Source: Nitrosopumilaceae archaeon
GTDB lineage: Archaea; Thermoproteota; Nitrososphaeria; Nitrososphaerales; Nitrosopumilaceae
Direction of reading: 5' to 3'
DNA: 64,000 nucleotides
Assembly: GCA_965203465.1 (NCBI GenBank)
Contig: CBDBCR010000001.1
Span: 608,001-672,000, forward strand
The position numbers and the translations under genes were made by a program. Shown one piece after another: positions 2,020 to 40,139 of the stretch. Position 1 is the first letter of the stretch. Every line of letters starts with the position of its first letter. The notes under the pieces are model-generated. The model made no database searches. It saw only the letters and a list, made by a program, of their open reading frames with translations, and was not told the origin of the DNA.

Positions 2020-2085
2020 GCCGCCCGCGGCGCTAGGTTATATTGGACGCGGGGAAAACCGCGGCATGGGCGGGGCTGGGCGGCG

Positions 2086-2829: not shown

Positions 2830-2868
2830 ACTTTAAATGATACAATACCTGTCGAAGAATCCGGGCCG

Positions 2869-3411: not shown

Positions 3412-3533
3412 GGGGGGCCTCGGCCGGGCGGGCCTAAAACCCTACCGGCCGCTGAATTTTGCAGGCGCAAAATTTAAGCGGCGCTAAACTTCATATTAGA
3501 ACCGGTTATCTAGCATCCGTGGCCGGCCAACCC

Positions 3534-6061: not shown

Positions 6062-6092
6062 GTTAAATACGCGCCGCCCGCGCCGAGGCTCC

Positions 6093-6512
6093 GTGAAGCT
6101 CGTTCTGGCCGCCGCGGTGCTCGGCTTGGCCGCAGCCGCCCAGCCTGCCTGGGCGCAGTCGGACCTGTACGTGCACGTGCAGACGATACTGCGCGACTCC
6201 GACGGCACGCTGATAGCGTACCTGGAATCCTCAAAGTTTACGGATCTCAACCTTGCGTTCATGGACAATTTCCTGGATCTGGAGGCCTCGCGCGAAGCGC
6301 CGGCCATAGTGGACCTGGGGGGGCAGTTCTTCGAGGTGATACGGCGCGTGCAGGTGGTGCCAATAGACACGTACACCGTGGTCGCCAGCACCAACCTGAC
6401 CTACGAAGTCGGCGGGCAGACGCAGCTGCTCGCGCGGTTCGCCCACAACGGGTACCCCACGGTGCCGGGCGACACGCTGGAGTCCATCTGGACGTTCGTG
6501 CGCCCCGCGTAG
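6093..6512 (+). CDS. Secreted hypothetical protein
   Basis: Signal peptide ending AWA-Q; TTAAATA box about 25 bp upstream. Confidence 0.75.
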   Translation: MKLVLAAAVLGLAAAAQPAWAQSDLYVHVQTILRDSDGTLIAYLESSKFTDLNLAFMDNFLDLEASREAPAIVDLGGQFFEVIRRVQVVPIDTYTVVASTNLTYEVGGQTQLLARFAHNGYPTVPGDTLESIWTFVRPA

Positions 6513-6545
6513 GGAATCTTAGTTGGCGCGCCTGCGCGGGCCGCC

Positions 6546-6710
6546 GTGAACAGGGCCGTAAAGGTGCCCATGTGGCAGCACGCGTGCGAGCGCTGCGGCT
6601 ACCGCTGGACCACGAAAAAGAGGCTGCCGGGCAACTGCGCGCGCTGCAACTCGCCGTACTGGAACAAGGCGAGGCTGCCGACCGGGTGGGTGTACGTGGG
6701 CAAAAAGTGA
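6546..6710 (+). CDS. Small Zn-ribbon protein (54 aa, absent from ORF track)
   Basis: VNRAVKVPMWQHACERCGYRWTTKKRLPGNCARCNSPYWNKARLPTGWVYVGKK: CxxC-x13-CxxC-xSPYW. Confidence 0.75.
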   Translation: MNRAVKVPMWQHACERCGYRWTTKKRLPGNCARCNSPYWNKARLPTGWVYVGKK

Positions 6711-6717
6711 CCCGTTT

Positions 6718-8082
6718 TCAGGCCGCCGCCTCTTGCCGCCCGGTCTTTCCTAGCACGGCGCCCACCCCGATGGCCACGAACGCGATCAGGGGCAGGAACC
6801 TGTACGGCTGGTTGGTCTGGTCGGAAAAGCCGGTCAAAAACGGGGCTATGAGGAGCATCCCCGAGATCATCACCATTATGGAATCGGCGTGCCGCATGCC
6901 CAGGCGCGAGGCCGCCGTCAGGCCCACCAGCAGGGGCATGAGCAGCACCAGCACGAGGCCGTCGAAGCGCATCTGGTAGGCAAACGAGGTGAACCCCTCC
7001 CAGAACTCCGAGGCCGAGAACGCCTCCTGCCTGCCCGTGATGAGGTCGGTGCTGGTGCCCTGCACGACAAAGACCGTCGCCATGATGACGAGCACCATGG
7101 CCGTGCCCACGGCCATGACTATCCTGCGCCTGGCGGGCAGGCCCGAGCGCAGCACGAAATAGACGGACATGGGGAGGAACGCCACGGTCAGCGCCTTTGC
7201 CGGTATGGACAGCAGGTAGAACGCCGGCGCGGCCTGCCACAGCCTGACGACCAGGTATATCGACGTCAGGTACAGGAGCGCCCAAAAGCTGTCGTACGTC
7301 ACGCTCGTATCGTACGTGAGGAATATGCCGCTCTGCATGAGCACGGCGGCCGAGATCAGAGCGGCGAAGCGCTTGCCCGATATCGTGCGCGCGGTCTCAA
7401 AGACCAGCAGGATCAGCGCGATGCTCGAGACGAACGGCAGCACCGCGTAGTTGCCGAACGCCTGCATGGACGCGTATATGAAGGCGTACTTTACGTGCGG
7501 CTCGGTGGACGTCAGGGCCGTCTCCGGAGTCCAGGTCTCCATCCTGGCGAGTATCCCGGCGTAGTCTTCCCACTCCTCGTCCTCGTACAGCTCGCCGTAG
7601 CTGAGCGCCGCGTACGGCACCAGCATGGCCGCAAGGACCGCGTACGAGACGTTTCTGGAGACCTCGAAGCGGAACGGGGCCGCTATCACGCGCGTAATCC
7701 GGTGGGGAAGCATCCCCATGTACTGCATGAACCCTACGCCCAGTATGGCCGCGCCGCCGGCGAGCACGGGCGCGGCCCACGGCCCGAACTCGTAGACGCC
7801 AGGCCCCGTGTAGTCGAGGCCCGGCACGGGCGCCTGGCCAGTCGAGGTCATGGCCGCGGGGAACACCACCGAGATCATGCTGATGCCGGTCACCACGACC
7901 GCGAAGAAAAAGACCGCCGTCGAGGCGCGGTTGTCCCTCTCTGCGGTCCTGCGCGCCTTTTTGTGCCGCCGGACGGGCGCCTCTGCCGGCTCGGGCGCCT
8001 TCGGCTCCGGAACCTTGGGCTCGGCCTTCGGCTCCGCGTCTGCGGGCCCGGATCTGAAATGCCGCCTTTTCCTGCGCGCCAT
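6718..8082 (-). CDS. Multi-TM membrane protein, GT-C/PMT-like glycosyltransferase candidate
   Basis: About 10 TM helices with an acidic EDEE loop after an early helix; lies in the glycosylation cluster; start at ATG 8082. Confidence 0.6.
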   Translation of the reverse strand: MARRKRRHFRSGPADAEPKAEPKVPEPKAPEPAEAPVRRHKKARRTAERDNRASTAVFFFAVVVTGISMISVVFPAAMTSTGQAPVPGLDYTGPGVYEFGPWAAPVLAGGAAILGVGFMQYMGMLPHRITRVIAAPFRFEVSRNVSYAVLAAMLVPYAALSYGELYEDEEWEDYAGILARMETWTPETALTSTEPHVKYAFIYASMQAFGNYAVLPFVSSIALILLVFETARTISGKRFAALISAAVLMQSGIFLTYDTSVTYDSFWALLYLTSIYLVVRLWQAAPAFYLLSIPAKALTVAFLPMSVYFVLRSGLPARRRIVMAVGTAMVLVIMATVFVVQGTSTDLITGRQEAFSASEFWEGFTSFAYQMRFDGLVLVLLMPLLVGLTAASRLGMRHADSIMVMISGMLLIAPFLTGFSDQTNQPYRFLPLIAFVAIGVGAVLGKTGRQEAAA

Positions 8083-8359
8083 GGCGCGGCCCCCGGGGGG
8101 CCGATAATAAAGGATTGTCTGGAGGGCCGGCCGCCGGAGCGCGTGCCGCAAGACCTGTCTCCGGCCAGCAGAGTCCGGCCGACGGACCTCGGATGTTTTA
8201 CGGGCCGAGCCGGTTTCGCGTCGGCCGGCCGACGCAAATTGTGCGCCGCCCCGCCGCAAGCCGGTGCATGCGGGGCGAAAACTCTCGCGGGCCTGCCTTG
8301 GGCGGTTACTTGCTCGAGGTGCCGCCCGGGCCGGACGCCCTCCCCCGATAGGCACTTAA

Positions 8360-9397
8360 GTGAAACGGCGGCCGCGCGCGCCGTTGGACATCCCGCTGAG
8401 CCTCGATCCGAGCGGAATGCACCGGGCATACGACGACTGGCCGCGGCTCGCGCGCGAGGCGTACGAGCAGCGCCCAGAGCCCGCCATGGACTACCGCTTC
8501 GATCACGTGGTGTTCGCCGGCATGGGCGGCTCGGGGGCGCTCGGAGAGATATTCCACTCGCTGCTCTCGCGCTCGCCTGTCCATGTGGACATAGTCAAGG
8601 GGTACCGGCTCCCGTACACCACCGGGCCCGGCTCGCTGGTGGTGGCAACGAGCGTCTCGGGGCAGACGGCCGAGACCATATCGGCGCTGCGCTCGGCGCA
8701 AAAGACCGGGTGCAGGGCGGTCGGGTTTTCGTCCGGCGGCCTGCTGCAGGAGATATGCCGCAGGGACGGCATACCGCACTACCGGATAGGCGAGGTGCAC
8801 TCGCCGCGCGCCTCGCTCGTCTCCTACCTGTATTCCATGATAGGGGCGCTCGGGCCCGTCCTGCAGCTCGGCCCCTCGGACGCAGAAGAATCGCTCGGCC
8901 ACCTGAGCTCGCTGGCGGCCCGCGTATCGTCGTCCAACCGCGACGGCAACCAGTCCCTCGAGCTTGCGTCCTGGCTGTCGGGCACGCCGGTGATACTGTA
9001 CCCGTGGGGCCTGCGCGCCGCGGCCGTCCGGTTCAAAAACTCGCTCCAGGAGAACGCAAAGATGCACGCCATGACCGAGGACATCATAGAGTCGTGCCAC
9101 AACGGCATCGTCGGGTGGGAGTCCGCCTCGGACGCGCGGCCGGTCATGATACGGGGGCACGGCGACGGGCAGACCACGCGCGAGCGCTGGAAGGTGATGT
9201 CGGAGTACTTTGCCAGCCGCTCCGTGGAGTTCCGGGAGGTGTCATCGCCGGCCGGCTCGCTGCTCACAAAGCTGGTCGGCCTCATATACGTGCTGGACTA
9301 CGCGTCGGTGTACCTTGCGCTGCTGCGCGGCGCCGACCCCGCGCCGGTCGAATCCATCGACTACGTAAAGTCACGGATCGGCCCCGGCCAGGCTTGA
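8360..9397 (+). CDS. SIS-domain bifunctional phosphoglucose/phosphomannose isomerase-like protein
   Basis: GMGGSG, SVSGQTAET, SPRAS, ENAK, ESCHNGIVGW. Confidence 0.88.
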   Translation: MKRRPRAPLDIPLSLDPSGMHRAYDDWPRLAREAYEQRPEPAMDYRFDHVVFAGMGGSGALGEIFHSLLSRSPVHVDIVKGYRLPYTTGPGSLVVATSVSGQTAETISALRSAQKTGCRAVGFSSGGLLQEICRRDGIPHYRIGEVHSPRASLVSYLYSMIGALGPVLQLGPSDAEESLGHLSSLAARVSSSNRDGNQSLELASWLSGTPVILYPWGLRAAAVRFKNSLQENAKMHAMTEDIIESCHNGIVGWESASDARPVMIRGHGDGQTTRERWKVMSEYFASRSVEFREVSSPAGSLLTKLVGLIYVLDYASVYLALLRGADPAPVESIDYVKSRIGPGQA

Positions 9398-25309: not shown

Positions 25310-26251
25310 ATGAGCTCGCAGGATCTGTTCGACTATGTCCGGGAAATGCCGGACGAAGACGCCGCCTGCCAGTTCGAGGCGCTCGTCGGGCTGGATCGCC
25401 TAAAGGATACGGTGCTGAAAGAGGCCCGCCTCGTAGTAGTTCCGGGGTCGCTGGAAGACTGGAGCAGGGAAAAGCACGGCTCCGTGCTGCCGTGCGTGGC
25501 GCAGTTCCGCCAGCGCTCTCCGCTGATGGTTTTTTACGGGGACGTGGGCACGGGCAAGACTACGCTGGCCGATAGCCTGGGGGACGCCGTCGCCCGCAAA
25601 GAGGGGATCTCCGTGACGCTCTTCCGCCTGAGCCTGATAGCCCGCGGGCAGGGGGCCGTGGGCCAGATGACCAGCCTGATATCGCAGGCCTTCGACGAGG
25701 TGGCACGAAAGGCCGGGCGCGGGGCCGGCCGGGACGGAAAGCCCTCGTCGGCGGTCGTGTTCGTGATCGACGAGGCAGACGCGCTGGCCGAATCCCGGGA
25801 CACCGAGCAGATGCACCACGAGGACCGCGCCGGCGTCAACGCGCTGATCCGGGGCATAGACCGCCTCGCCAAGGAGCGCCTGCCGGCCCTGGTGGTGCTG
25901 TGCACCAACCGGTACGAATCGCTCGATCCGGCGGTCCTGCGCCGCGCGGCCATCAGCCACGAGTTCAAGCGGCCCAACGACGAGCAGAGGGAGGCGCTGC
26001 TGCGCAGGGCCTTCGGCGACGTCTTCGGGACCGAAGAATACGAGCGGCTGGTCGGGCGGACCGGCCCCGGCGAGGCCGGATACGGGTATTCTTTTTCGGA
26101 CATAACGCAGCGCCTCGTGCCGAACATACTCTTGGAGGCGTTTCCGGACGGCCGCGTCGGTTTCGGCACCGCCTCGTCGGTGCTAGACAGAACCGGCCCG
26201 ACCCCGCCGTTCGGCCGCCGGGGGAGGGACGGGGCACGCCCACCGGCCTGA
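25310..26251 (+). CDS. cap6: TRIP13/Pch2-like AAA+ ATPase (Cap6)
   Basis: GDVGTGKT Walker A, RGQGAVGQMT, VIDEADALAESR, MHHEDRAGVNALIRGID, LDPAVLRRAA. Confidence 0.92.
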   Translation: MSSQDLFDYVREMPDEDAACQFEALVGLDRLKDTVLKEARLVVVPGSLEDWSREKHGSVLPCVAQFRQRSPLMVFYGDVGTGKTTLADSLGDAVARKEGISVTLFRLSLIARGQGAVGQMTSLISQAFDEVARKAGRGAGRDGKPSSAVVFVIDEADALAESRDTEQMHHEDRAGVNALIRGIDRLAKERLPALVVLCTNRYESLDPAVLRRAAISHEFKRPNDEQREALLRRAFGDVFGTEEYERLVGRTGPGEAGYGYSFSDITQRLVPNILLEAFPDGRVGFGTASSVLDRTGPTPPFGRRGRDGARPPA

Positions 26252-27660
26252 GCGCCAGCGGCGCCCGGATCAGTGGCGACAACTACCAGCACCTGTTCGC
26301 CTGGCTCAAGGTGCTGGAGGCGAGATCTCAAGACATCGAAAGCGTCGGAATCGAAGATCCCGACGCGGAAAACGCGGACGACGTGACGGTGTACATGAAA
26401 GACGGGAGGCGGGAATGCTACCAAGCAAAGTATTCGAACGACGCGAGCCGGCCCGCGACGCTCGAATGGCTCACCGAATCCGAACCGGGCGGGCGGAGCA
26501 TGGTGCAGGGGTTTTACGAGCTGTGGAAGGGGGCAGAGATCAAGCCCCGGATAACACTGGCGACCAACCGGCCCCCGGGCGGCGATCCGCTGGCGGGGCT
26601 GGCAGACGGAGACGACGACACCGTCGCGCGCCGCCTAGAGCACGCAAAACCCGGATCCAAAGAAGGCCGCCTGTGCGCCAGTCTGGCCGGCCACCTCGGA
26701 GCGTCCACAGCCGACACCGTGGCGTTTCTTCGCGACGTCCGGTTTTATTTCAGATCAAGGGGGGAGCTGATCGGGCTGGTCAAGGAACGCATGGGCGCCG
26801 CGGGCCTCTGCAACGACGACGACGCGGTTGCCAGAGGCGTCGGCATTGTGCGGGACTGGACGACGGGGGGCAAAAGAAGAATCGCCAGGGCGCAGCTGCT
26901 CTCTGCCCTCGAGCCCCTAAAGCGCCCGCCCCGTTCTACGGCGTCGATCCTGGTCCAGATGCTCGACCGCGATCCGGAGCCGGCAAGCGCCACTATTTCG
27001 TTCGACTGGACGGATCTGTTTCCGGGCAGCGAGCCCAGGCGCGTGCCGTCGGATCCGGGTCTGTGGAACTCTGAATTCCTGCCGGCGTTCAGGCGGGCGG
27101 CGCGGACGCTGCGCTCGCGACACCACGCGCACGTGCTGGTGCGGGGGTACATGCGCCTGCCAACGTGGTTCGCGGTGGGCGCGGCGCTGGCCGAGGCCGC
27201 CTACTCTGAAGTCTCGTACCTCGAGGGGGAGGAGGAACGGTCGTCCGCGGGGGAGATATCCAGAGTAGACGTCGAGTGCTACGTGTCCGACCTGGGCCCC
27301 GGCCGGGACGTTGCGGTGGGCGTCGCGCTGGCATCGGATCCGTCGCCCGAAGCGGTGAAGTACATACGCGGCCAGATTCCGGGCGTCGGCAGATATGCCA
27401 GCGTCCGCCACCCCGGCGGGGCCAGCCGCCGGGCTATACGGGACGCGGCCGAAGCCGGGGGCTGGGCCCTCGGAGCGTGCGACTCGATCCGCCGCCTCTG
27501 CCAGAGCGGGCCGGAACGGGTGCACCTCTTCATGTCGGCGCCGCGCGGCGTGGCGCTGCTGCTGGGCCGCCTGTGGACCCGCATGCCTTGCACGCAGCTC
27601 TACGAGGATCTCGGACCGGGCAAGGGATACTGCCCTTCCTACCTGTTCCCTGCCTCCTAG
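26248..27660 (+). CDS. cap4: Cap4-like effector: PD-(D/E)xK endonuclease plus C-terminal SAVED sensor
   Basis: GARISGDNYQHLFAW, DDVTV...YQAKY nuclease core; SAVED end VHLFMSAPRGVALLLGRLW...QLYE...Y.P; apparent CTG start overlapping the cap6 stop (CTGA). Confidence 0.85.
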   Translation: MSASGARISGDNYQHLFAWLKVLEARSQDIESVGIEDPDAENADDVTVYMKDGRRECYQAKYSNDASRPATLEWLTESEPGGRSMVQGFYELWKGAEIKPRITLATNRPPGGDPLAGLADGDDDTVARRLEHAKPGSKEGRLCASLAGHLGASTADTVAFLRDVRFYFRSRGELIGLVKERMGAAGLCNDDDAVARGVGIVRDWTTGGKRRIARAQLLSALEPLKRPPRSTASILVQMLDRDPEPASATISFDWTDLFPGSEPRRVPSDPGLWNSEFLPAFRRAARTLRSRHHAHVLVRGYMRLPTWFAVGAALAEAAYSEVSYLEGEEERSSAGEISRVDVECYVSDLGPGRDVAVGVALASDPSPEAVKYIRGQIPGVGRYASVRHPGGASRRAIRDAAEAGGWALGACDSIRRLCQSGPERVHLFMSAPRGVALLLGRLWTRMPCTQLYEDLGPGKGYCPSYLFPAS

Positions 27661-27678: not shown

Positions 27679-28284
27679 TCACCGCATCTTGGCGAACCGA
27701 ACCACGCGCATCGCGCCGCCCGACATCTCCTCGAGCGGCTTGGCGAACGCCGTAAAGTCGCCGTCGTTCGAGACCAGCGCGGCCTTGCCATCCAGTGAGC
27801 GCGCTATCGTGACCGCCTGCATCATTATGATCCTGTCCGTTTTCGCATCCTCGTAGAGGCGCCTGAGCGCGGGCTTTGGGCTGGCCTCGGCCGACTTTGC
27901 GCTTATCCTCCAGGCGCTGAACAGGCGGGCCTTTTTGGCCTTTAGCCACGCGCGCGCCTCGGCGGTGCCCGGCTCGTTGACGGCTGCCATGTGCATCCGC
28001 TCGATTCTGCGCAGCAGGCCGCCGTCCCTTCCTGGCTCTTGGTACATGTCGTATATCCAGTTCTTTTTGGCCCCCTTTACGCGGCCCATCCACGCGATGT
28101 CGTTCCTGCCCCTTCCCCTCTTGTTGGCCTTTTGGAGGCGCTTGAACTCTGTCTCGACGGCGCGCGGGACCACGAGCTTGCCGTCCAGCCGCCTCTCGAA
28201 CCAGGCCGGCCCCCTGCCGATCTCGTGGTACGATTTGAGCACGAGCACCACCGCGCTAGTCTCCATGATGGCCGTCCCGTCCAC
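27679..28284 (-). CDS. PIN-domain ribonuclease-like protein
   Basis: IMETSA (first acidic residue is E), VVPRAVETE, TDRIIMMQA, LVSNDGDF. Confidence 0.75.
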   Translation of the reverse strand: MDGTAIMETSAVVLVLKSYHEIGRGPAWFERRLDGKLVVPRAVETEFKRLQKANKRGRGRNDIAWMGRVKGAKKNWIYDMYQEPGRDGGLLRRIERMHMAAVNEPGTAEARAWLKAKKARLFSAWRISAKSAEASPKPALRRLYEDAKTDRIIMMQAVTIARSLDGKAALVSNDGDFTAFAKPLEEMSGGAMRVVRFAKMR

Positions 28285-28728: not shown

Positions 28729-28860
28729 ATGCCAAAATACCCCGGAAAGGCCGACAAGGCTGACTTGGACAACAATGCCCACCAGCTCAATCCGGAACAC
28801 TCCGCGTACAAGGGGCCGGCCCGGCCGCCGCCCCCAAAAAGCGCCAAGAAAGGCTCCTGA
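28729..28860 (+). CDS. DNxxxQxNP microprotein, copy 1 (43 aa)
   Basis: MPKYPGKADKADLDNNAHQLNPEHSAYKGPARPPPPKSAKKGS; TTTAAG box about 24 bp upstream; homologous to copy 2. Confidence 0.75.
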   Translation: MPKYPGKADKADLDNNAHQLNPEHSAYKGPARPPPPKSAKKGS

Positions 28861-29400
28861 CCGGCTAGCGCCGCCCGGGGCGGGCCCCATCACGACGACC
28901 GTCTGAATCGCCGCATTCTGGCACATGCGGCTACTTGGGACGCGCCAGAGCGACGGGCATCTTGTCGCCCACGTACGGGCGAAGGCGCCGATCCCACGTT
29001 TCGAGCCGCCAGATCCGCCGCGCAGGAACCGGCGTCGCTTGGCAGGCGCGGAGCGCGCCGCCTGCGGGCGCACTATCCGCGCGGCGCCCTGGGCAAGAAC
29101 GGGACGGCGGCAAAAAAGGCGATCGCAGGCGGTGCGTCGGGCCGGACGGACGGGGCGCGCCGCGGATCGCCTGCGTTTTTGGATCCTGGAAGAGGTCGGT
29201 TTCGGGCGCAGAAAAGCGGCCCAAGCCCCAGCGGAAAGAGCGTCCGGTTGTCCAAGTACAGCGCAAAAAAAAAAACGCCGAGTGGTACGATCTTTGATCG
29301 TGCAAGCCAATCCTTGATGGGCCGTGGTCGTCTATCTAGCCAGCACTCTTGTACTGGTTATGATCGCGCCTGCCCGGCCGTGCGGATTCCCAAAGCCCTT

Positions 29401-29487
29401 CTATTCTTGATCTGTAACTACCCAGTACAATTCTGCTATCGTGCAGACTATGCCCAGTATTGCGATCGCTTTTTTCAACGATGTCAT
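29401..29487 (-). CDS. 28-aa hydrophobic peptide or truncated membrane-protein gene
   Basis: MTSLKKAIAILGIVCTIAELYWVVTDQE*; TTTAAA box about 27 bp upstream; T11 tract downstream on this strand (A11 at 29265-29275). Confidence 0.4.
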   Translation of the reverse strand: MTSLKKAIAILGIVCTIAELYWVVTDQE

Positions 29488-29898
29488 TGTGCAGATGTAC
29501 GTTTACTTGGCATTTAAACCCCCCGCTACGTCTCACCGGGTGCTTTGTACGGGCCGCGGATCTCGGCGATCGGGCGTTTTGTGGCTGTTCCGGAAGCGGT
29601 TCCGCGGCCCGGGCCCCCGCTCCGCGCCTCCGGCCGGCAGGTGCGCCCTCGGCCGGCCTTTCCTCGCCGGGCGCCCGACGTGGCGGATCGAGCTTTGAGG
29701 GGCGCGCGCTTTGGCAGCCGGCCGTGACCGACAAGCGCGGCGTCCGGGAAAAGCCGGCCCCGGGCCGCAAAAACCGGTCCGCGCGGCCCCCGCAGGCGCC
29801 GGGCCTCGGATGCGCCGGAATCCGCCGTTCTGGGGGATCCTGCGGCAGCCGTCCGGAACAATGGATATATGCGGCATTCGCGGGCACGCGCCGCCGAA

Positions 29899-30180
29899 AT
29901 GGCGAAGATCGAGATCAAGGCCGTGCACGCCTGCGACGTGGCGGAGATCTTGAGAAAGTACGGTCAGTACGACGCGTTCGTGGAGAACCGCATGGCGTGC
30001 TATGTCTGCGGCAAGACCGTCAACGAGGGCAACATGGCCGGCCTGCGGAGGTCCGGGAACGGGGTGGAATTCGCCTGCGGGGAGGCGGCATGCTACGGCG
30101 CCGTCCTGAAGAGCGTAGCGGGAAAACGGGCCGACGCGGCCGCCGGCCCGCGTCGCGCGCCCGGCGGCAGCTCGCCCTGA
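29899..30180 (+). CDS. Small Zn-finger protein (CxxC...Cx4C, TRASH-like)
   Basis: IKAVH..D, CYVCGK, FACGEAAC; GATATAT box upstream. Confidence 0.7.
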   Translation: MAKIEIKAVHACDVAEILRKYGQYDAFVENRMACYVCGKTVNEGNMAGLRRSGNGVEFACGEAACYGAVLKSVAGKRADAAAGPRRAPGGSSP

Positions 30181-30420
30181 GTAGGCGGCCGGCCCGCGGG
30201 GAAGCCTTGCGCGGGCCGATCCCGGCGAGCGGCTCTTCCGCCGCAATCATTCTGTCGCGCCGGGCGAGTGCAATTCGCGTCTGCTAGGACGCCGGCCCAG
30301 ACCGGTCGCGGAGGCCGAACCGCCCTTCATCGCGCGCAGGATCGTGCACGGCGGGAGGGCGACGGCCGAGGGCCAGCGGACGGTTCGCGGACGCAAATCG
30401 CGACTCATCCGCCAAGCCCT

Positions 30421-30834
30421 CTACGCCCATACGTGTATCTGGTTGCCGATCTTGCCCCCCAGCCCGATTCGGCGTATGAGATTTTCCATGGCTTCCCTGT
30501 CTCCGCGGGGCACGATCACGTGCAGCGGGGCGGGAATCTTGGTGTCGGGCATAACAAGACACCCCCATGCGCGCAGCTGTCCTTCGGCGTGTTCGGTGTG
30601 GGGGCCGGACACGTCCGTCTCTGCCTCGCCGATATGGGTCACTCCCCGTTGATCTTTGCCCAGCAGATCGGGAAACTTGCCGTTTACGGCGTACGGTTTC
30701 GGAAGGCGGCTGTATTTTTCATCAAACAGTTGTGGCGTATCCTCTACATCGATGTGAGTCACCTCGACGCCCTTTTCCTTCTCAAGCGCCTTTGCAAGCG
30801 CGTTGATCAAACTCTGGTGCTTCTCAGACGCCAT
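30421..30834 (-). CDS. Small PD-(D/E)xK-like nuclease-fold protein
   Basis: N-terminal H..LI helix, FPDLLG, HIGEAET, Q helix; CTTAAC box upstream. Confidence 0.6.
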   Translation of the reverse strand: MASEKHQSLINALAKALEKEKGVEVTHIDVEDTPQLFDEKYSRLPKPYAVNGKFPDLLGKDQRGVTHIGEAETDVSGPHTEHAEGQLRAWGCLVMPDTKIPAPLHVIVPRGDREAMENLIRRIGLGGKIGNQIHVWA

Positions 30835-30997
30835 GCCGCTTTACCCACATCGGCAGTTAAGCGTGTTCCGTCGGCAGCCACAGCGACGAGGCACGCGGGC
30901 AAGGACCAGGATTGGCAGCTGTACCGGGGCAAGAAGGAGCGGCGATCTAGGCCGGGCGCCGGCCTCGGTTCTGGAGCGGCGAGGCGCACGGCCGCGC

Positions 30998-31630
30998 CTA
31001 CGCGCGCTTCACCCCGAACTCTTTCATGACCTTCTGCACGACCTCTTCTGCCTCCCTTGGGACGTCGTCTCGTTCCAGATATGACAGGCGCCTTGCGAGC
31101 TCCGCCTTGGGGTACCGTCGCCCGGACCGCCTTTTCCACTCTTCCTGCAGGACGTTGACCGCGCCGCTGCTCCGCCTGCGCCTGTCCAGTTCCTCCGCGG
31201 ACAACCCGAACTCTATCCCGTGTTTTCTCGCCAGCTGCCTGCTGTATCTTGCCAGCATCGAGCTCGGAAACAAGTCCTCAAAGTCGCCGTCCAGAAAATG
31301 GCACTGGTTCGCGGCGAGTATGCCTTCCTCTACGAGTTTGTCAACGTGCTTGCGCGCCCTGCTGTCCTTGTCCAAAAGGACGAAGATCTTCTTTCCTGAC
31401 ATCTTCAGGTACCGGATCAGCGGCCCGAGGTGCTTTGCGTTGCCGCACCCCCCTATGTCGAGCGTCCAGGGGGCCATCGCTACCTCGTAGCCCAGGGTGC
31501 GGGCCAGCGCCGGTATCGCGGTGTCTTCGGACTTGCCCTCCGCGCAGCACAGGTAGTCGCTGTCAAGCACGTCCGAGTAGCTTGTCCCCATGCTGGATCT
31601 GATCAGGTTTTTTTCCGCGCGCGAAATCCC
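30998..31630 (-). pseudogene. C-terminal TOPRIM domain of an OLD-family nuclease, 5'-truncated (ATPase part absent)
   Basis: I..SMGTSYSDVL linker, AEGKSE, IGG.GN, LLDKD (DxD), DFEDLF, YPKAELAR. Confidence 0.75.
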
Positions 31631-31850
31631 CGAATCTGCGGACGATCCCTCGAATCCGGCCCGGCACATAGTGGACGACCGCCAGGGCAGGGCGTGGCCG
31701 TGCAGCCCGGGATTCCTGCAGTACCACCTGCTGTACCCAGAGGACAGCTGGCAGCCGATCAGGGGCGGCAGCAGCGGCGCGATAACGTGGATCGTGGATC
31801 GCGCCTGCAGCATGGTGGACAGGCGGAGCCTCTGGGGGCCGGCGGTTTGA
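31625..31850 (+). pseudogene. C-terminal half of CEHH-type/E2-like protein (BilB-like), 5'-truncated
   Basis: RHIV...WPCSPGFLQYHLLYPEDSWQPIR resembles the C..G..EYH...D.W..R motif; stop overlaps the JAB start (TTGA). Confidence 0.6.
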
Positions 31851-32308
31851 AGATCCGCCGCGTGGACCTTCCGCGCAAGATCCTGCAGCAGACGTTCGAT
31901 TTTCTGGGGGAGCGGGGATCGCGCGGGCTCGAAGCACACGCCATGTGGGCGGGCGCGGTCTCGGAAGGGACGTTCGGCGTATCGGCCGCGATATTCCCGC
32001 GGCAGGCCTGCTTGCCGGCATCCTACGAGGTGCCCGAAGACGAAGAGTTTAGGATCAACAGGCGGCTGAACCGGAGGGGCCTCGTCTCCATGTGCCAAGT
32101 ACACACCCACCCCGGGCGCGCGTTCCACAGCCGCGCTGACGACGAGGGATCCGCGCTGGCACTGCCCGGCTCGCTCAGCGTGGTCGTGCCCGGCTACGGG
32201 GCCGCCGGGACAGACGACCCATCGGCGTGGGCGGTATACGAGCTGTCGGGACGGCGCTGGCGCCGCTTGGGCAGGAGCAGGGTGGAGAGGATGTTCCAGG
32301 CACCATGA
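31847..32308 (+). CDS. JAB/MPN+ metallo-isopeptidase (BilC-like)
   Basis: LEAHAMWAG catalytic Glu region, QVHTHPGRAFHSRADD (HxH-x7-S-x2-D type motif), SVVVPGYG. Confidence 0.88.
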   Translation: MKIRRVDLPRKILQQTFDFLGERGSRGLEAHAMWAGAVSEGTFGVSAAIFPRQACLPASYEVPEDEEFRINRRLNRRGLVSMCQVHTHPGRAFHSRADDEGSALALPGSLSVVVPGYGAAGTDDPSAWAVYELSGRRWRRLGRSRVERMFQAP

Positions 32309-33798
32309 CCTTCACCGCCGCGCAAAAGACCGACGCCCTGATGGGCGCTCTGCTGGGCAGCCCGGCCGTCGGCAGCATGCGCCGCCGGCTCGATTCTTTC
32401 ACGGCGGACATCCGCCTGGTGGAGGATCCGCCCACGCCCAACGCGCAGGTGGCCTGCGGCGTCGCGCTGAACCTGCTGCCCCGGCTGCTCAAACACGTCG
32501 GATACGACGGGCCCCGATCCGCCTTGCGGGGGGTTGTCCCCTTCGCACGTGCGGTTGCTGGATTCGGGGGGCGGCCGGGACGCCTCTGCCACCTTTGTTC
32601 GTGCGCGGGGAGTCTTCCGGGGCGCGCAACGCCCTGTACGCGGGCTCGTCGGGGTGGAGCTCGTACCTGTCCGCGGGCGGCCCGTGCCCGTGGGTTCCGG
32701 CCGTGTACAACGCGCTGGGCGCCATGCACGCGGGGGCCCTGGCAGTCGGCGAAGTGTTCAAGATGCTCGCGCGCGAAGCGAGGCCGGAGACGGCCGCCCG
32801 CCTAGAGTACGATCTGGTCACCCACGGCAGAGCCAGGCAGCCCGTGACCGACCCGCCCGTCCCCGAAATAGTCGATCTGGGCGACCTGACCGTGGTCGGA
32901 TGCGGGGCGATAGGGCAGGCGCTCTGCTGCGCGCTGTCCGCGACCAGGCTGGCGGGCCGAGTCACCCTGCTGGATCCGGAAAATTTCGACGAGTCCAACG
33001 AGCAGCGGTACCTGACGGCGTTCGAAGAGGAGAGGGGCAGGCCCAAAGTACGGCGTGCGGGCCTGATCCTGTCGGCCCGGAGCCCCCCGCTTCGGGTCAA
33101 CGCGACCGACCTGACGTACGAGGCCTACATGGAGACCGCCGACGCCCGCGTCTCGGAGGTGGCAGTCTGCGTCGACAACGTAAAGACCAGGCTCAACGCG
33201 CAGGCCGCCCTCCCGCGGACGCTCTGGAACGGGTGGACGGACGTAGAGCCGGGCAGCCTCAGGTACGGCGTGAGCAGGCATTCGCTGGCAGGCAGCTCCG
33301 TGCCTGGCGTGCTACTACCGCCCCGGCGGCGGCCCGCCCAGCGGCGAAGACATGGAAGCGTCAAAGACGGGGCTGAGCAGGGACCGTATAAGGGAGATAC
33401 GCGCGCGCGGGGAGCCGTGCAGCCGCGGCCTGCTGGCCGAGGTGGCGCGCGGCGCGGGAATGCCGCTGCGGCGGCTCCTGCCCTTCGAGGGCAGGCCGTT
33501 CGGGGACCTGCTCCACGGCGACTGCGGCGTGTTCTCGGCGCGGACGGGCGAGCCGGAGGCGCCGACGCCGGCCCCGCACCAGCCGGCGCTGGCGGGGATC
33601 CTGCTGGCTTCGCAGCTGATCCTGGAGAGGATCGCCCCAAAAGCGGCGGCCCTCAGGTCGCTGTCGGATTTCGACGCGCTGCGCGTGCCCGGGCCCCTGT
33701 GCCTGGTCGAGTCGAAGAGGCACCCGGACTGCTTTTGCAACGATCCGGCGTACCGGCGCGCATACGGGCGAAAGTGGGCCGGCTGGCCTCCGGGCTAA
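32305..33798 (+). pseudogene. E1/ThiF-family activating enzyme (BilD-like) with three +1 frameshifts
   Basis: ATGA overlap with JAB; VGCGAIG, DPENFDESNEQRY, VDNVKTR, PCLACYY, DCG, HPDCFC; shifts near 32530 (G6), 32595 (T3) and 33297. Confidence 0.82.
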
Positions 33799-34206
33799 AG
33801 CGCGAGGCGGGGCTGCGGCGCACCGCCGCTAGCGCAGGCTCCGGCACGGGGCGATCTAGGCGCCGGAAAAAGCGTAGCGGGGCCGCCCGCATTTCCGCGC
33901 GTCCGGGCTCCGAGAACGCGCGGCCGCGCCGGCCGATCTGCCGCCGGAAGGCCGGCAGGGGATCGCGGGATCCCGGGTCTGCGCAGCCGGAGGCGTGCAG
34001 TCTCTGGAGCCCGGGATTGGACGAGATCTGCGGCATGCGCGACGGCGATTCGGGCCGGCCTCGGCGGGCGGCCCGCTCTGCCGTACGGGCGGACGGAGCG
34101 CCGGAGCGCGCGGCGCCTTTTTTCGCGCCCGAGCGATCCGCGGACGCGGCCGGTTACCGCCAAGCGATCGTAGAGTTTTTATGCGGGTCCGGAGGGCTGA
34201 CATGAC

Positions 34207-34314
34207 ATGGGCAAATACGAAGGCGCTGGAGACCAAGCGGATTTGGACAACCACGCCAACCAACTCAACCCTAACAACGACGAGTACGCCGGATCAGCAG
34301 ACAAAAAAGACTAG
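34207..34314 (+). CDS. DNxxxQxNP microprotein, copy 2 (35 aa)
   Basis: MGKYEGAGDQADLDNHANQLNPNNDEYAGSADKKD; TTTTTATG box at 34176-34183; T6 directly after the stop. Confidence 0.8.
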   Translation: MGKYEGAGDQADLDNHANQLNPNNDEYAGSADKKD

Positions 34315-34598
34315 GATTTTTTGACGCGGGCGCCAGCCCACATTCAACGTGCCCGACGAAGGGCGTTTTCCGGAGCTGGCGGTGCCGCGTGATCGTTCGT
34401 CTCCCCGATCTCGGGATTGGCGGGGCGGCCCGGTACGGAGGCGGCGCAGCTGCGGGTTCCGGCGGCGCCTGCCTGACCGAGCCGGACGGAGGCGATCGGG
34501 TGCGCGTGTCTGCGGCGCACGGCGCCGCGTCCTGGGTCGCGTCCAGCGGCAAATGCGGACCCGGCGGGCGCCTCGAGGGCGGCTGTCCGCGGCGCGCG

Positions 34599-35672
34599 TC
34601 AGTCCGGCTGGTCGCGGTCCGGATCGTTGCCTGTTCTTTTCTGGATTATGGACAGGGATTTTGAGATCAAATCCCTCGCGTTGTCCGGCTCGAATTTGGC
34701 GGCAAACCCGGTGACGTGCCCCAGCCTCCCTTTTGCGGTGATGACCAGCTCGCCGAGTTCGCCGCTGGCAGATTCGCACTCTTGCTCGAAGAAGTTGCCT
34801 GACAGATCTTTGACGATCGTAGGCGAGATGGCGATCAGCGTCTTTCCGTCCTGTATGAATTCGTTGAAAACCTCGTTGATGCCTTCGTCCCGGAACGAGC
34901 ATCCTACCACTATGCAGGCGTCCTGCTCCTTGAACTCTTTTTTCATGAGGCCGAATATTTCTGAAAACGGGATCTCCTTCTCGTCGTCCTTGGGGGAGAG
35001 GGTGGGCATGATCACCATGTCTTTTTCGACGTTGGGCCCGTCGCCGATCTCGAAACCCGCTACAATGCCGTACTTTTTGTGCATTTTCCATTCCAGCGAT
35101 CCGTGCAGTTTGTAGAGGCGCACGGGGTTGGTGGCATTCTGCGTATCGAACTCCCCACTCCATATGCGAACACCGTACGAATCATCAAACCCGTCAACGC
35201 AAGTGCAGTCGTACAGGCGGCAGCACGTCTCGATGGCGGTATCGTAATTCGTGGTAAAGACGGTGACGGCGCCGGTTTCCGATCTCAGATCATGAAAGAT
35301 CTGAAAGTGCACGTCATACAATTCTTCATCATGATCGTGCTTCCACCCGTAGTGGGATTTGAGGAGCGATTCTATCTGTCGTTCAAGCTCGGCAGACGAC
35401 GACACAAAGCCGCTCCCCGCGTATTTGATGCCGGGCATAGATTCGCCGCCAAAAACCAATCTGCCCGCGCCGGTTTCGTTAAACAGCCTCACGTCTTTGA
35501 GCGCCTGCAGTGCCTCTTCGACGTCCTTGAACCGGAGCCTGTCCGCAAGATGCTTGTAGAGTCTGCCCGTCTCGGCGTCCAGGCGCTCGGGCAGCAGCTG
35601 CAAGAATTCGGCGGTGGTGTGCTTGCTGAACATCGCCGACGCGCCCGCGCCAAGGAACAGCGAAACCCTCAC
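34599..35672 (-). CDS. SIR2-like (SIR2_2) NADase-family protein, copy A
   Basis: LFLGAGAS, FTTNYD, LYKLHGS, VGCSFRDE; visibly lower GC than the flanks. Confidence 0.9.
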   Translation of the reverse strand: MRVSLFLGAGASAMFSKHTTAEFLQLLPERLDAETGRLYKHLADRLRFKDVEEALQALKDVRLFNETGAGRLVFGGESMPGIKYAGSGFVSSSAELERQIESLLKSHYGWKHDHDEELYDVHFQIFHDLRSETGAVTVFTTNYDTAIETCCRLYDCTCVDGFDDSYGVRIWSGEFDTQNATNPVRLYKLHGSLEWKMHKKYGIVAGFEIGDGPNVEKDMVIMPTLSPKDDEKEIPFSEIFGLMKKEFKEQDACIVVGCSFRDEGINEVFNEFIQDGKTLIAISPTIVKDLSGNFFEQECESASGELGELVITAKGRLGHVTGFAAKFEPDNARDLISKSLSIIQKRTGNDPDRDQPD

Positions 35673-35809
35673 GGCGTAGGCCCCCGCGGCCTGCATATGA
35701 GAATTGCGCCGGAGGGGCCGCCCGGTAGCCGCCGGGCAGCTGCCGCGGGGAGATTTTCGCGGCGGCCGTCCGTAGACGCTCCGGCCCGCGGCCGGCCTTG
35801 AGCCTGAAC

Positions 35810-36481
35810 TCACTCGTGGCCCAGGACGTACCCGTCTATCGTTATGGTGCGGTCCTCCGTGTTGTGGACCACGATGCTGGAGCCGGCCCTGACGGTGCAC
35901 GTGTTGTGGTAGGCGTGCCACATCTGGCCGTGCCCCTCGCACGTGTAGTACCTTCCGACGCGGTCGCCCACAAAGCCGCCGACGTCGGTTTCGGGCGGGA
36001 GCACGTATATCCTGAACCCGTCGTATTCGTGATCCGTGGAGAAAGAATAGTAGACGGGGCCCCTGTTGCATACGGTGTACGTCATGTACCACCCGGACTG
36101 GAGGTCTTGGCCGGTGCTCCGGTATTCGGACGAGCACCGCGCCGCGGATCCCGGCTGCGCGCCCGCGTACTCTTGGACGGAGAACCTCTCCCCGCGCGTG
36201 ACGGCGCCGTTGGGGTTCTTGAACCCGTCGGCGCCGTACATCTGCGCCACCGCGGCTAGGCTGAAGGCCGACGGCGTCTTGGCCCTGGATTCCAGCCTGT
36301 CGCACGTGGGAACGCCGTTCTCCGCGCTGCACATTATGTCCCCGGTCTTGTTGAACGCGTGCCCCAGCCCCACGGCGTGGATGAACTCGTGGGCGGCCGT
36401 GGCCGAAACGCCCGCGTCTGATCTGCGCTGCCCCTCGGACGTGGAGCACACCACCGTCTGGACGGGCTTTTCGCCGGTCAT
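35810..36481 (-). CDS. Matrixin/M10-like zinc metallopeptidase, probably N-terminally truncated
   Basis: HEFIHAVGLGH (HExxHxxGxxH) and Met-turn DIM; the frame continues upstream without a signal peptide or clear start. Confidence 0.7.
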   Translation of the reverse strand: MTGEKPVQTVVCSTSEGQRRSDAGVSATAAHEFIHAVGLGHAFNKTGDIMCSAENGVPTCDRLESRAKTPSAFSLAAVAQMYGADGFKNPNGAVTRGERFSVQEYAGAQPGSAARCSSEYRSTGQDLQSGWYMTYTVCNRGPVYYSFSTDHEYDGFRIYVLPPETDVGGFVGDRVGRYYTCEGHGQMWHAYHNTCTVRAGSSIVVHNTEDRTITIDGYVLGHE

Positions 36482-36879
36482 GTACGCGACCCCGTAATAG
36501 TCCGCGTCGTCCGGGACCGTTTGCGCGCACGGCGGTATTTTCCAGAGCCTATGCGTAACCCTGCTTTTGTCCGGGCTACCGTGCCGCGCACGCGCAAAAC
36601 GACAGGGCGGCTTGCGATCTGCGCGCGGAGACGTAGACCGCAGCGCGTTGTCTGCTGATCGCGCCGTCCGTTCTGGCCAAAGCTAGCGCACCGCCGGATC
36701 CCGGCGGCCTTGCAAGAAACCGCGCGCAGGCCCGCAGCACGGCAGCGTACCGCGCGCACGGCGGGTCTGGGGGATCCCGGCGGGAGCCCCGAGCGTCGGC
36801 GCCTTCGGCGCCGCTTGGGGATCTCCCTGCGCCGCTGTTTCACCCGTTGCCCGCCTTTTGCCCGTCGGCCATCTGGCAG

Positions 36880-37420
36880 TTTCTGGGGCGCTTTTCCATT
36901 CTGCGGAACGCCAGATCGCCTGGCACGCGCATCTGGGCGCCCCCCGGCCATGCTGGGAAAGACCCTAGCCAGCTCTACCGCCGTTCGACGCAGCGGGCTA
37001 TGCCAAGCCGGGCGCGGCCGCTCCGCAGATGCTTCTGCGCCTGTTGACTGCGACCAGCGCGTTGATCGAGATCTCGTTCTTGCCCGAAAACTCCTCCCCC
37101 GATTCTTTTCGCCCCTTGGCGCCGGTGCGGATTGCGCGCGCCGCCCACCAGCAGGGCGCAGTGGGATCCCGACGGCGCGACGTTTGACCCGTTCCGGCGT
37201 CCGGCGATCGCCTCGGAAATCGCCTTGGCCGCGGGGGATCTTTTCCAGCGCCTGCCTGTCGAGCGCGGGGTGCAGCGGGACGGCGCTCTGGACGATGCCG
37301 AACGCGGCGCCGAGTGCCCCTTGGCGCATGCCGGTGGAGGCGTACTGGGCTGAGGAGCGGCGCGTGGCGCTTGTACAGCTTGCGCCTGTTGCCCGGGATC
37401 CGACGCCGGGCATCCCTCCA
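36880..37420 (-). mobile_element. Heavily degraded IS5-like (HTH_Tnp_4/DDE_Tnp_4) transposase relic
   Basis: Fragments in different frames: GNRRKLYKRHA, YASTGMRQGALGAAFGIVQSAV (HTH), ALEKI, FSGKNEISINALVAVN (YSGKK-like). Confidence 0.5.
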
Positions 37421-37737
37421 CGAACGGGGGCGTCCTGCCCGTCTCGCCGCGCCGCCCAAAGAGGTGCGCGCACTCTCCCCCGCAGATGCCCGAACGGGCG
37501 TGATCTCCACCCCTCGGCGCGTTGTCGAGCGCCTCGGACGCGTGCACCCGCCCCGGATCCCCGCGCGCCGTGCGGCCGACGGCGGGGTCGGACTTGCAGA
37601 GGCTGGGTTTCGCCTCGAGCGCCGCCTCCCGCCCCATGCGCGCCGCCTGCTCTCGCACGATCGCGTCCCGCGTAGCCGCACGCGGTCGCCGCGTCGGTCT
37701 TTGGCGGCCGCAGTCAAGAAAAATTGAGCTCGTGCGA

Positions 37738-38007
37738 TTACGCATAACCCGTAACTACTTCTACGTCCCGTTTGTTGTACATTATGCTGTTGCCGAAAAC
37801 GACGATGTCGGTGGTGTGCGTGGCTCTGTTTGTAATCGTGACGGTGTATTCCTCTGCGGGACCGTAGTGGATTTTCTGGTTCTGAAGCAGCGGTATCCTT
37901 ACGACCGGCGTCGTCGAATTTTTGATCGCCTCTGCCTGCTTCGAATCGAGCCCGTCGATCATAACGAACCGCTCTACGTAGTACCCCTTACCATCGGATC
38001 GGCTCAC
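37738..38007 (-). CDS. Hypothetical 89-aa beta-rich protein
   Basis: Low-GC ORF VSRSDGKGYYVERFVMIDGL...EVVTGYA; CTATTAT box about 25 bp upstream. Confidence 0.55.
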   Translation of the reverse strand: MSRSDGKGYYVERFVMIDGLDSKQAEAIKNSTTPVVRIPLLQNQKIHYGPAEEYTVTITNRATHTTDIVVFGNSIMYNKRDVEVVTGYA

Positions 38008-38204
38008 GGGGCGGGGCGCCCGTTCCCGGCCATAATAGCATATCGTTCGCCCGGCATTTCGCCCCCTCTGGGGGGAGTGCCGCCCTTGGAAAATCCGCAC
38101 AGGACCGCGGCGGCCGACGCGGACACCCGGCGCGAATGCGCCTGCCACAACTGGCGCGAAACTTGGGCGATCGGAGGATTCCCGTGCGGGGCCAGAGACC
38201 GGCC

Positions 38205-38311
38205 ATGACGCGGATGAATACGGAGCCGGCGACAAAGCGGACTTGGGTAACCACGCAAACCATCGACCCAAACAAGGGTGCGCCGGATCAGAGAAAAAAC
38301 GGGCTCTTTGA
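38205..38311 (+). pseudogene. DNxxxQxNP microprotein, copy 3 (decayed)
   Basis: Aligns at DNA level with copy 2; ATG replaced by GCG, small deletions; reads EYGAGDKADLGNHANH...AGSEKK. Confidence 0.7.
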
Positions 38312-38643
38312 TGCGGGCGCCTGCCCGCATTCAACGTGCCCGACGAATGGCGTTTTCCGGAGCTGGAGATGCCGCGTGATCGTTCGGCGCCCCGATCTCG
38401 GGATCTGCGGCGCAGCCCGGCAGAGGCGGCGCAGCTGCGGGTTCCGGCGGCGCCCGCCTGGCCGCACCGGCCGGGCTACGGGCAGCCCGTTCGCCCCGTG
38501 TGTCGGACGGAGGCGAGCGGATTCCGGTCGTCTGCGCAGACCGCACGTTCGGGTTCCGTGGATGTCTCAAGGCCTCAAGACAGCCGCCTCCAGCGCACGC
38601 TGGCAAAATCGTGAGTGACTGACCAAGCGCGGCAGATCCGCGC

Positions 38644-39744
38644 CTAGAAAAAGCGACGCTCTTCGTCCGCGCGTGACTTTAGATCGCGGCACGGATCGCG
38701 GCCGGATCTCTCCCGGATCACGTCTAGCGATTCTGAGATCAGCTGTGGCGCGTTGCTGGATTCGAATTCGGCGTCAAACCCGGCGACGCACCCCTGTCCG
38801 TCTTTTGGAAAGATGTACGACTCTCCGTGATCGCCGCTAGCCGATTTACACTTTTGCTTGAACAGGTTGTCTGACAGATCCTCGACTACCGTGGGCGAGA
38901 TCACGATCAGCATCTTTTTGTCTTGTATGAATTCTCGGAAGACCTCATTGACGCTTTCGTCCCTGAACGAGCATCCGACCGCTATGCAGGCGTCCTGTTC
39001 CTTGAACTCTTTTTTCATAAGGCCGAATATTTCTGAAAACGGGTTCTCGTCTTCCTCGTCTTTTGGAGAACGGGTGGGCATGATCATGATGTCTTTTTTG
39101 ATGTTGGGCCCGCCGCTCAGTTCGGGGCTCATGATGATGCCGTACGTTTTGTGCAGTTTCCACTCCAGCGATCCGTGCAGTTTGTAGAGGCGCACCGGGT
39201 TCTTGGCGTTCTGCGTGCCAAAATCACCAGTCCATGCGCGACGGCCGTACCTCTCTGCAAAGCCGTCAACGCAAGTGCGTTCCGCCATGCGGCAGTACGT
39301 CTCGATGGCAGTATCGTAATTCGTGGTAAAAACGGTGACGGCGCCGGTTCGTGATTTCAGATCGCGGAAGATTTGATCGTAGGCATCCTGCAGCTTTTGA
39401 TCATGATCGTGGTTCCACGCATAGTGTGATTTGATGACCGATTCGATCTGGTTCTTCAACTCGGTGCACGACGGCCAAAAACCGCTCTGCGCGTCTTGAC
39501 TGCCCGGCATAGACGTAGACGCAAAAACCACTTTGCTCACGTCGGTCTTGCCGAACAGCCTTACGTCTTTGAGCGCCTGCAGGGCCTCTTCGATGTCCTT
39601 GAACCGAAGCTTGTCATCGAGGCGCTTGTAGAATTTGCCCGTCTCGGCGTCCAGGCGCTTGGGCAACAGCTGCAAGAATTCGGAGGTGGTGTGCTTGCCA
39701 AACATCGCCGACGCGCCCGCGCCAAGAAACAGCGAGACCTTCAC
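38644..39744 (-). CDS. SIR2-like (SIR2_2) NADase-family protein, copy B
   Basis: LFLGAGAS, FTTNYD, LYKLHGS, VGCSFRDE; colinear paralogue of copy A. Confidence 0.9.
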   Translation of the reverse strand: MKVSLFLGAGASAMFGKHTTSEFLQLLPKRLDAETGKFYKRLDDKLRFKDIEEALQALKDVRLFGKTDVSKVVFASTSMPGSQDAQSGFWPSCTELKNQIESVIKSHYAWNHDHDQKLQDAYDQIFRDLKSRTGAVTVFTTNYDTAIETYCRMAERTCVDGFAERYGRRAWTGDFGTQNAKNPVRLYKLHGSLEWKLHKTYGIIMSPELSGGPNIKKDIMIMPTRSPKDEEDENPFSEIFGLMKKEFKEQDACIAVGCSFRDESVNEVFREFIQDKKMLIVISPTVVEDLSDNLFKQKCKSASGDHGESYIFPKDGQGCVAGFDAEFESSNAPQLISESLDVIRERSGRDPCRDLKSRADEERRFF

Positions 39745-40022
39745 GGCGTAGGCCCCAGCGGCCTGCATATGAAAATTGCGCTGCTGGCGGGGGCCGCCCG
39801 GTACAGGATCGGGCCCGCGTCCGGGCGCCGGCCTACCTGCACGGGGCTCTCGCACCCTGTCTGTACCTAGCCGGCCGCTGCGGGTGCGGCCCCCGGACGC
39901 TGCCCGCGCCTTCGGCGCGCGCGGCCGGCTCGGCGAACATCGAGGATGTCATTCTGGGCGGCCTCCGGCCGGGCGCGGCTTTCGCGCCCGGGCCGGCTTT
40001 GAAAAACGCCGTCTGTATGCGT

Positions 40023-40139
40023 TCAGCGCTTCGTGTTCTTTTGCACGCTGCGGTTGTCTAGCATCGCCTTGTGCTCTGCGCTGTTCGGATTGAACGCGTC
40101 CGATCTCTGATCGTTGGGCGTTCTCTTGGCCGCTGCCAT
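40023..40139 (-). CDS. DNxxxQxNP microprotein, copy 4 (38 aa, two-motif form)
   Basis: MAAAKRTPNDQRSDAFNPNSAEHKAMLDNRSVQKNTKR: DQRSDAFNPN followed by LDNRSVQKN. Confidence 0.7.
   Translation of the reverse strand: MAAAKRTPNDQRSDAFNPNSAEHKAMLDNRSVQKNTKR

Follow-up and report, generated by a model that had tools for sequence, protein, structure and literature searches.

This locus raises the question of whether very small genes that lie among the defence genes of an archaeon serve those genes or only share an island with them. We analysed a window of 64,000 nucleotides from a Nitrosopumilaceae archaeon (contig CBDBCR010000001.1, positions 608,001 to 672,000 of the forward strand), which is part of a 2.26-Mb genome in four contigs. 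A first-pass annotation of the window had noticed four loci between 28729 and 40139 that encode related microproteins. They lie next to a cyclic oligonucleotide-based anti-phage signalling system (CBASS), an open reading frame (ORF) labelled as a 'PIN' nuclease and two SIR2 genes, and an undescribed peptide component of immunity had been proposed. Our best explanation, which we regard as probable, is that these are independently transcribed microprotein genes that belong to a conserved repeat family and are carried as cargo in a rearranging island of defence genes and insertion sequence (IS) elements, and that they are not cognate antitoxins of SIR2, 'PIN' or CBASS.

All four loci were found where the annotation had placed them. 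Copy 1 (28729-28860, plus strand) is an intact single-repeat microprotein gene of 43 amino acids with the core ADLDNNAHQLNPEHSAY and a basic tail. Copy 2 (34207-34314, plus strand) is an intact single-repeat gene of 35 amino acids and is the nearest to the family consensus. Copy 3 (38205-38311, plus strand) is a relic of a copy-2-like gene. Its motif frame, starting at 38207, reads ..ADLGNHANH, indels after GNHANH shift the frame, no in-frame ATG was found and the upstream AT-rich promoter box is gone, which agrees with its earlier description as decayed. Copy 4 (40023-40139, minus strand) is intact and encodes 38 amino acids from the ATG at 40139, or 43 from a GTG at 40154; it belongs to a sister subfamily. 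A fifth copy, which is frameshifted, lies outside the window at G000:C1:309604-309687 (span also 309597-309690), where the frame of a nearby ATG is shifted by one base against that of the motif. This copy is 2.2 kb away from an IS66-family element. When the whole genome was searched in six frames, [NH]Q[LM]NP occurred just four times, and three of these occurrences were copy 1, copy 2 and the fifth copy. Because the motif is so rare in 2.26 Mb, its presence in the copies is not a chance match.

The copies are related, copy 4 more distantly, and a fifth copy exists elsewhere in the genome. The description of the family as hidden was correct in part. The exact 43-residue product of copy 1 was not among the proteins of the public collections, whereas copy 2 and the 38-residue form of copy 4 had already been called there.

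A family profile built from 11 archaeal members recovered 2352 protein clusters at E<=1 (2472 candidates of 15-76 amino acids). Among 1.84 billion representative proteins, 1015 representatives matched at E<=1e-3 and 145 at E<=1e-10. Copy 1 as a lone query led to one relative, and a profile search was needed to find the family. Against the family profiles, the scores were 71.5-77 bits for copy 2, 66-75 bits for copy 1 and just 17-19 bits (E 0.03) for copy 3; copy 4 was not recovered by the main profile. The family unit is a repeat of about 30 residues, DLDNH..Q.NPNN..Y, with one to four repeats per protein and the core D-L-D-N-H-x-x-Q-(L/M/C)-N-P-N-N-x-x-Y. In the alignments the D, L, D, N, H, Q, N, P and Y of the core are invariant or nearly so and fixed in their spacing; they are retained in copies 1 and 2, with N for H in copy 1. 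Two motif matches were counted in 187 of 259 family proteins, one in 50, three in 11 and four in 3, and most of the high-scoring members have two repeats. The commonest repeat period is 30 residues (94 times), and L, C or M fills the position between Q and NP in 423 of 464 cases. Some variants continue with ..AYW.SRG.DERPDDW, others have a hydrophobic stretch at the N-terminus, and a few are longer fusions that contain no Pfam domain. In P0242, a protein of 433 amino acids from the representative library, the four tandem motif repeats precede a C-terminal region whose GS...DxD-like pattern is reminiscent of nucleotidyltransferases; Pfam gave no match to this protein.

The motif of copy 4 differs (..TPNDQRSD..NPNS.EHKA..DNRS.Q.N, with ..NP.S.EHKA.. 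in the motif of its subfamily). Members of this subfamily occur in 12 of the 401 genomes of the class, counting its own genome (11 others). Both motif types occur together in proteins such as P0238 and L010:1329-1553, which link copy 4 to copies 1 and 2.

The family is absent from the collections of named families that we searched. Pfam-A and NCBIfam returned no family for any of the four copies at E<=10, PHROGs returned none for copies 1, 2 and 4 at E<=0.01, and the ESM Atlas contained only unnamed clusters (0.85-0.90). The few named records of the family are called 'hypothetical' or 'uncharacterized', under labels that include Geodia barretti, Halichondria panicea and Enterobacteriaceae. The family motif strings were not found in the searched literature, a search whose scope did not extend to supplementary files; a search by words led to nothing beyond general papers about archaeal dark matter and about sponge Thaumarchaeota. 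As predicted by the first-pass annotation, the copies are thus, by these sequence searches, members of an undescribed microprotein family, and a very large one.

The family is sporadic across archaea and bacteria and is present on sponge records. Matches were detected in 9 of 61 relatives. Of the 401 genomes examined in the class, 30 had one (28 of 399 when the unpublished G258 and G347 are left out), as did 3 of 401 genomes sampled from one bacterial phylum.

Selection on the peptide, which had been argued from the kept motif, was analysed in 36 pairwise comparisons over a core of 27 codons. pN was 0.01-0.29, while pS was 0.48-1.3 and mostly saturated in 35 of the 36 pairs; the remaining pair, L059/L061, had no synonymous change. 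Where it could be estimated, omega was 0.02-0.40. The peptide was retained in related genomes although the GC content of the locus spans 29-69%. In related strains, the orthologue of copy 1 (P0001) is 81% identical, with three replacements and two synonymous changes, and in the related-strain contigs of runs X3 and X6 the copy 1 frame is open and matches P0001. Two of the three replacements return the family consensus DNHANQ: copy 1 has N at the H position of the core, and the related strains have H there. We conclude from these comparisons that the frames are coding and under strong purifying selection.

The small genes also have putative transcription signals of their own. The GC content of the window is 62-72% apart from dips. 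A TTTAA box lies about 27 nt 5' of the ATG of copy 1 and a TTTTTAT box about 28 nt upstream of copy 2, and the fifth copy likewise has an AT-rich box upstream. In these three copies AT-only pentamers are placed 20-36 nt before the ATG, for which the chance rate is 8% per site. No comparably clean AT-only box was seen upstream of copy 4. A run of five or six T comes after the stop codon in copy 2 (T6, immediately adjoining), copy 4 (T5, 18 nt further on) and the fifth copy (T6). The boxes fit archaeal TATA boxes that drive leaderless mRNAs, and the small genes are probably transcribed as such.

The predicted structures give a first idea of the fold. The AlphaFold2 model of copy 2 had a mean pLDDT of 65.9 with a single helix at residues 10-17, and the model of the two-repeat protein P0002 had a pLDDT of 76.7 and a pTM of 0.56 with a helix in each repeat. 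A Foldseek search of the P0002 model against the PDB gave no match. With moderate confidence, two repeats are predicted to form one two-helix unit, and single-repeat proteins may pair. The homodimer prediction for copy 2 scored 0.00 against a mark of 0.42, a result that counts neither for nor against dimerisation. We imagine the following arrangement. Each repeat would be a small helix-plus-turn unit, two repeats would pack into one two-helix domain, and the single-repeat proteins would function as dimers or in combination with a paralogue. So arranged, they would expose the invariant polar residues (D, N, H, Q, N, N, Y) to a ligand or a protein partner. If the peptides act on defence at all, they would do so in trans.

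The association with defence genes was analysed at 20 archaeal homologue loci, where all ORFs of at least 80 amino acids within 5 kb on each side (225 ORFs) were scanned with PADLOC. The 20 control loci (229 ORFs) were placed 300 kb away on the same contig, or half a contig away on two contigs shorter than 400 kb. At E<=1e-5, the homologue loci matched 272 PADLOC families (130+142) and the control loci 111 (47+64), where the counts are inflated by redundant models, the ORF calling was crude, and the single control offset is arbitrary and unmatched for island status. The hits at the homologue loci included SspC, SspD, type I, IIG and IV restriction enzymes, pAgo with SIR2, MkoA-like, AbiEi, HEC-06 and PbeA, and several of them mapped to the loci L056, L063, L064 and L069. 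The control hits were mostly such as housekeeping ATPases and E1 enzymes would give as well, with one SIR2 and one type IV enzyme in addition. Four transposase families occurred at 9 of the 20 homologue loci and at 3 of the 20 control loci, a difference biased by the choice of the transposase queries from the test set itself. An all-against-all comparison of the neighbours at the homologue loci, which are partly annotated, yielded no recurrent family save transposases. The same comparison bears on a possible RiPP precursor peptide, for which maturation enzymes next to the gene and a leader/core layout would be expected. In L053 and L071 the small gene directly adjoins a transposase gene; the DNA similarity ends at the transposase, and we rejected the idea that the small gene is an IS passenger.

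In other lineages, too, the gene was found beside defence genes. In the loci L189, L191 and L193 the small gene starts 21 bp after hsdS; hsdM is found near the small gene in L151, L187 and L190, and hsdS too in L151 and L187. In L159 (2236-8145, a metagenome contig) a single strand carries the genes for an OLD-family-like ATPase of 692 amino acids and for a SIR2-like protein together with three small ORFs, one of which is the microprotein gene. The expected enrichment of homologues near defence genes was thus observed, with type I restriction-modification (RM) genes or an OLD-like ATPase beside the gene in other lineages. We conclude that the genes are found by preference in flexible regions where defence systems and IS elements abound, and that they have no fixed partner.

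For some of these loci we record the gene order separately. In the metagenome contigs L189, L191 and L193 (about 1500-8600) the order is hsdM, hsdS, the two-repeat microprotein gene and a gene for 1126 amino acids without a sequence match in the PDB. In L064 of genome G151 (2522-8222), a short pAgo-like gene (630 amino acids) and a SIR2 gene (335 amino acids) are found with a convergent microprotein gene (5995-6102) and a gene for a PIN-domain protein (7395-8222).

Several points weigh against the reading of the genes as independent cargo. Apart from the limits of the PADLOC counts, the control and the transposase queries given above, the model of the single repeat is weak. A same-strand neighbour within 100 bp was found for only 2 of 17 genes in the archaeal loci, but for 20 of 46 small genes in the metagenome set, which comprises 54 longer loci of two-repeat relatives with mostly unannotated neighbours. 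The position of the small gene directly after hsdS resembles a working part of a defence operon, and in L159 the spacing of 16 and 10 bp to the small flanking ORFs is operon-like. In addition, four of the five copies in the genome fall within 12 kb of one defence island.

These points suit a different explanation, in which the microproteins are a general accessory of defence that acts in trans and serves unrelated systems such as SIR2, pAgo-SIR2, type I RM, OLD-like nucleases and Ssp. The accessory might be a small regulator that restrains effectors, or a bait or sensor for phage proteins. Besides the PADLOC enrichment and the operon-like placement in L189, L191, L193 and L159, it is favoured by the three paralogous lineages within one island of the window and by the convergent arrangement of a small gene and SIR2 in both the window and G151. 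However, a constant partner is lacking, the archaeal copies mostly stand alone and two of the five copies in the genome are decayed. The family is also found on sponge genome records and in forms with the hydrophobic N-terminal stretch, and tblastn with two family members gave no match in 72,556 plasmid and 50,697 phage records, to which the low-complexity filter of BLAST may have contributed. We therefore consider a general accessory possible, but clearly less likely than independent cargo. A bolder form of it is more speculative still. In this form the NPNN-repeat microproteins would be a pan-domain, system-independent component of immunity, a two-helix module, built as a dimer of single repeats or from tandem repeats, which could combine with unrelated effectors (SIR2 NADases, pAgo-SIR2, type I RM, OLD-like nucleases) and serve them all as a regulator or phage sensor. 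Such a module would explain the scatter of the family through defence islands from ammonia-oxidising archaea to gut bacteria.

A close partnership with the neighbouring SIR2 genes, the 'PIN' ORF or CBASS requires a look at the island itself. The gene geometry around copies 1 to 4 had been described correctly. Copy 1 and ORF 27679-28284 point away from each other, copies 2 and 3 converge on the SIR2 genes, and copy 4, which shares the strand of SIR2-B, is 255 bp upstream of it. Block A (34164-35727) contains copy 2, a spacer (34323-34489) and SIR2-A (34599-35696, minus strand), and its duplicate, block B (38167-39803), contains the copy 3 relic, a spacer (38317-38474) and SIR2-B (38644-39768, minus strand). 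The blocks are 78-79.5% identical, and the frame of SIR2-B is intact although the small gene of its block has decayed. The two spacers are 88% identical, which is above the 79.5% of the SIR2 ORFs, and the last 80 bp of the spacer (3' part) resemble the end of a multicopy IS66-family element of the genome. An RNA element in the spacer was not supported, since the sequence after copy 2 folds no better than shuffled sequences (z -1.3 and -2.2) and the differences between the copy 2 and copy 3 spacers are not compensatory; Rfam and tRNA scans of the window gave no match. Contigs of related strains (X3, X6) join 34489 to 36500 and 34710 to 38876. This suggests forms without SIR2-A and the protease-like ORF next to it, and forms with a single recombined SIR2, and the island is therefore being reshuffled.

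Further members of the island are a Cap4-type SAVED nuclease (25900-27660) and, at 31430 to about 33800, a JAB protein nearest to BilC and an E1-like protein nearest to BilD. The E1/BilD-like gene (32227-34205, plus strand) reads sensibly in three frames in turn (32227-32805, 32595 to about 33300 and 33352-33798) and is either broken by frameshifts or mis-assembled. The idea that the microproteins are ubiquitin-like tags for the adjacent E1 was dropped, their C-termini having no Gly-Gly tail. Just upstream of SIR2-A, an ORF of 223 amino acids (35810-36481, minus strand) has a zinc-protease motif of the HEFxHxxGxxH type, read from the translation. Opposite in strand to copy 4 and beginning 260 bp away from it, a single ORF of 7439 amino acids (40400-62719, plus strand) is composed of many similar units of about 100 residues.

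The presence of SIR2 was tested with a hidden Markov model (HMM), which distant SIR2 proteins may escape; of the four SIR2 proteins used to make it, two belong to these loci. Within 5 kb, SIR2 was detected at 1 of 20 homologue loci (L064) and at 1 of 20 control loci, and both were training sequences of the HMM. Elsewhere it was detected at 1 of 80 metagenome loci and at none of 16 copy-4 loci. As far as a four-sequence HMM can tell, co-occurrence with SIR2 is not conserved across the homologues. Operonic coupling with SIR2 was not seen either: copies 2 and 3 are convergent with it (copy 2 at a gap of 285 bp), and copy 4, 255 bp upstream, has its own T-run. For the ORF at 27679-28284 (minus strand, 201 amino acids), no match was obtained in Pfam, PADLOC, PHROGs or the PDB sequences, and the ORF labelled as a 'PIN' nuclease thus showed no detectable PIN signature.

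We conclude from these results that the copies are very unlikely to be cognate antitoxins or regulators of the adjacent SIR2 genes or of the 'PIN' ORF. Such a role would be in line with the duplication of copy 2 and SIR2-A as a single block, with the same-strand position of copy 4 ahead of SIR2-B and with the small gene of G151 that is convergent with a pAgo-linked SIR2. However, copy 3 has lost its start codon, frame and promoter box while SIR2-B is open, and this decay, the convergent orientation and the promoter box and T-run terminator that each gene has for itself argue against it. In the related strains the join of 34489 to 36500 may remove SIR2-A beside copy 2, SIR2 is no more frequent near homologues than near controls, and the 'PIN' ORF has no PIN signature. 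The dedicated antitoxin or regulator of SIR2, PIN or CBASS that had been suggested is thus not upheld; no neighbour is constant, and close same-strand neighbours are rare in the archaeal loci. Type II antitoxins and small regulators share with the present family the placement of a small protein gene beside toxic effectors such as SIR2 NADases and nucleases. In contrast to type II antitoxins, the present family has no operon coupling, no constant partner and no DNA-binding domain, and the relic beside an intact SIR2 argues against dependence.

It is equally improbable that the family is a generic hydrophilin-like protective or stress microprotein without a link to defence, whose island location reflects its accessory status: the amino acid content of the 259 proteins analysed (12.9% N, 9.5% D, 9.2% G and 8.6% S), the tandem repeats, the sporadic spread over the domains of life and the mostly coiled models of copy 2 and P0002 agree with it, but the spaced invariant polar residues and the hydrophobic position after Q (L/M/C) look like a folded binding unit, no Pfam match points to a known hydrophilin repeat family, and defence genes are enriched around the homologues when these are compared with the control loci. 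Repeat-containing general stress microproteins and hydrophilins, for example the KGG-repeat proteins, are likewise short, very hydrophilic and rich in Gly, Asn and Asp; they too are taxonomically widespread and contain tandem repeats, of 20-30 residues. The present repeat has no sequence relationship to them (no match in Pfam-A), and it differs by its strict polar motif and predicted helix. A DNA mimic with anti-restriction activity was also rejected, since the tails are acidic, basic or neutral and charge is not conserved.

Another close parallel is offered by the archaeal 'dark matter islands' (PMC4158269), variable genome regions in which small genes, unannotated or called 'hypothetical', are reportedly likewise clustered with defence systems and mobile elements. 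Those island genes are described as fast-evolving. The present family is neither narrowly spread nor quick to change: archaea, bacteria and the sponge records share its 16-residue core, in more than 1000 representative clusters.

Small proteins are routinely overlooked in genome annotation. Here, a family of more than 1000 clusters with a strict 16-residue core recurs beside very different anti-phage systems, and the size of its peptides allows direct synthesis as well as structural and binding studies. If the family has a role in immunity, defence catalogues in their present form may lack an accessory that several systems share. If it has no such role, it would still be useful for marking flexible islands, and would illustrate cleanly how a microprotein domain can be conserved.

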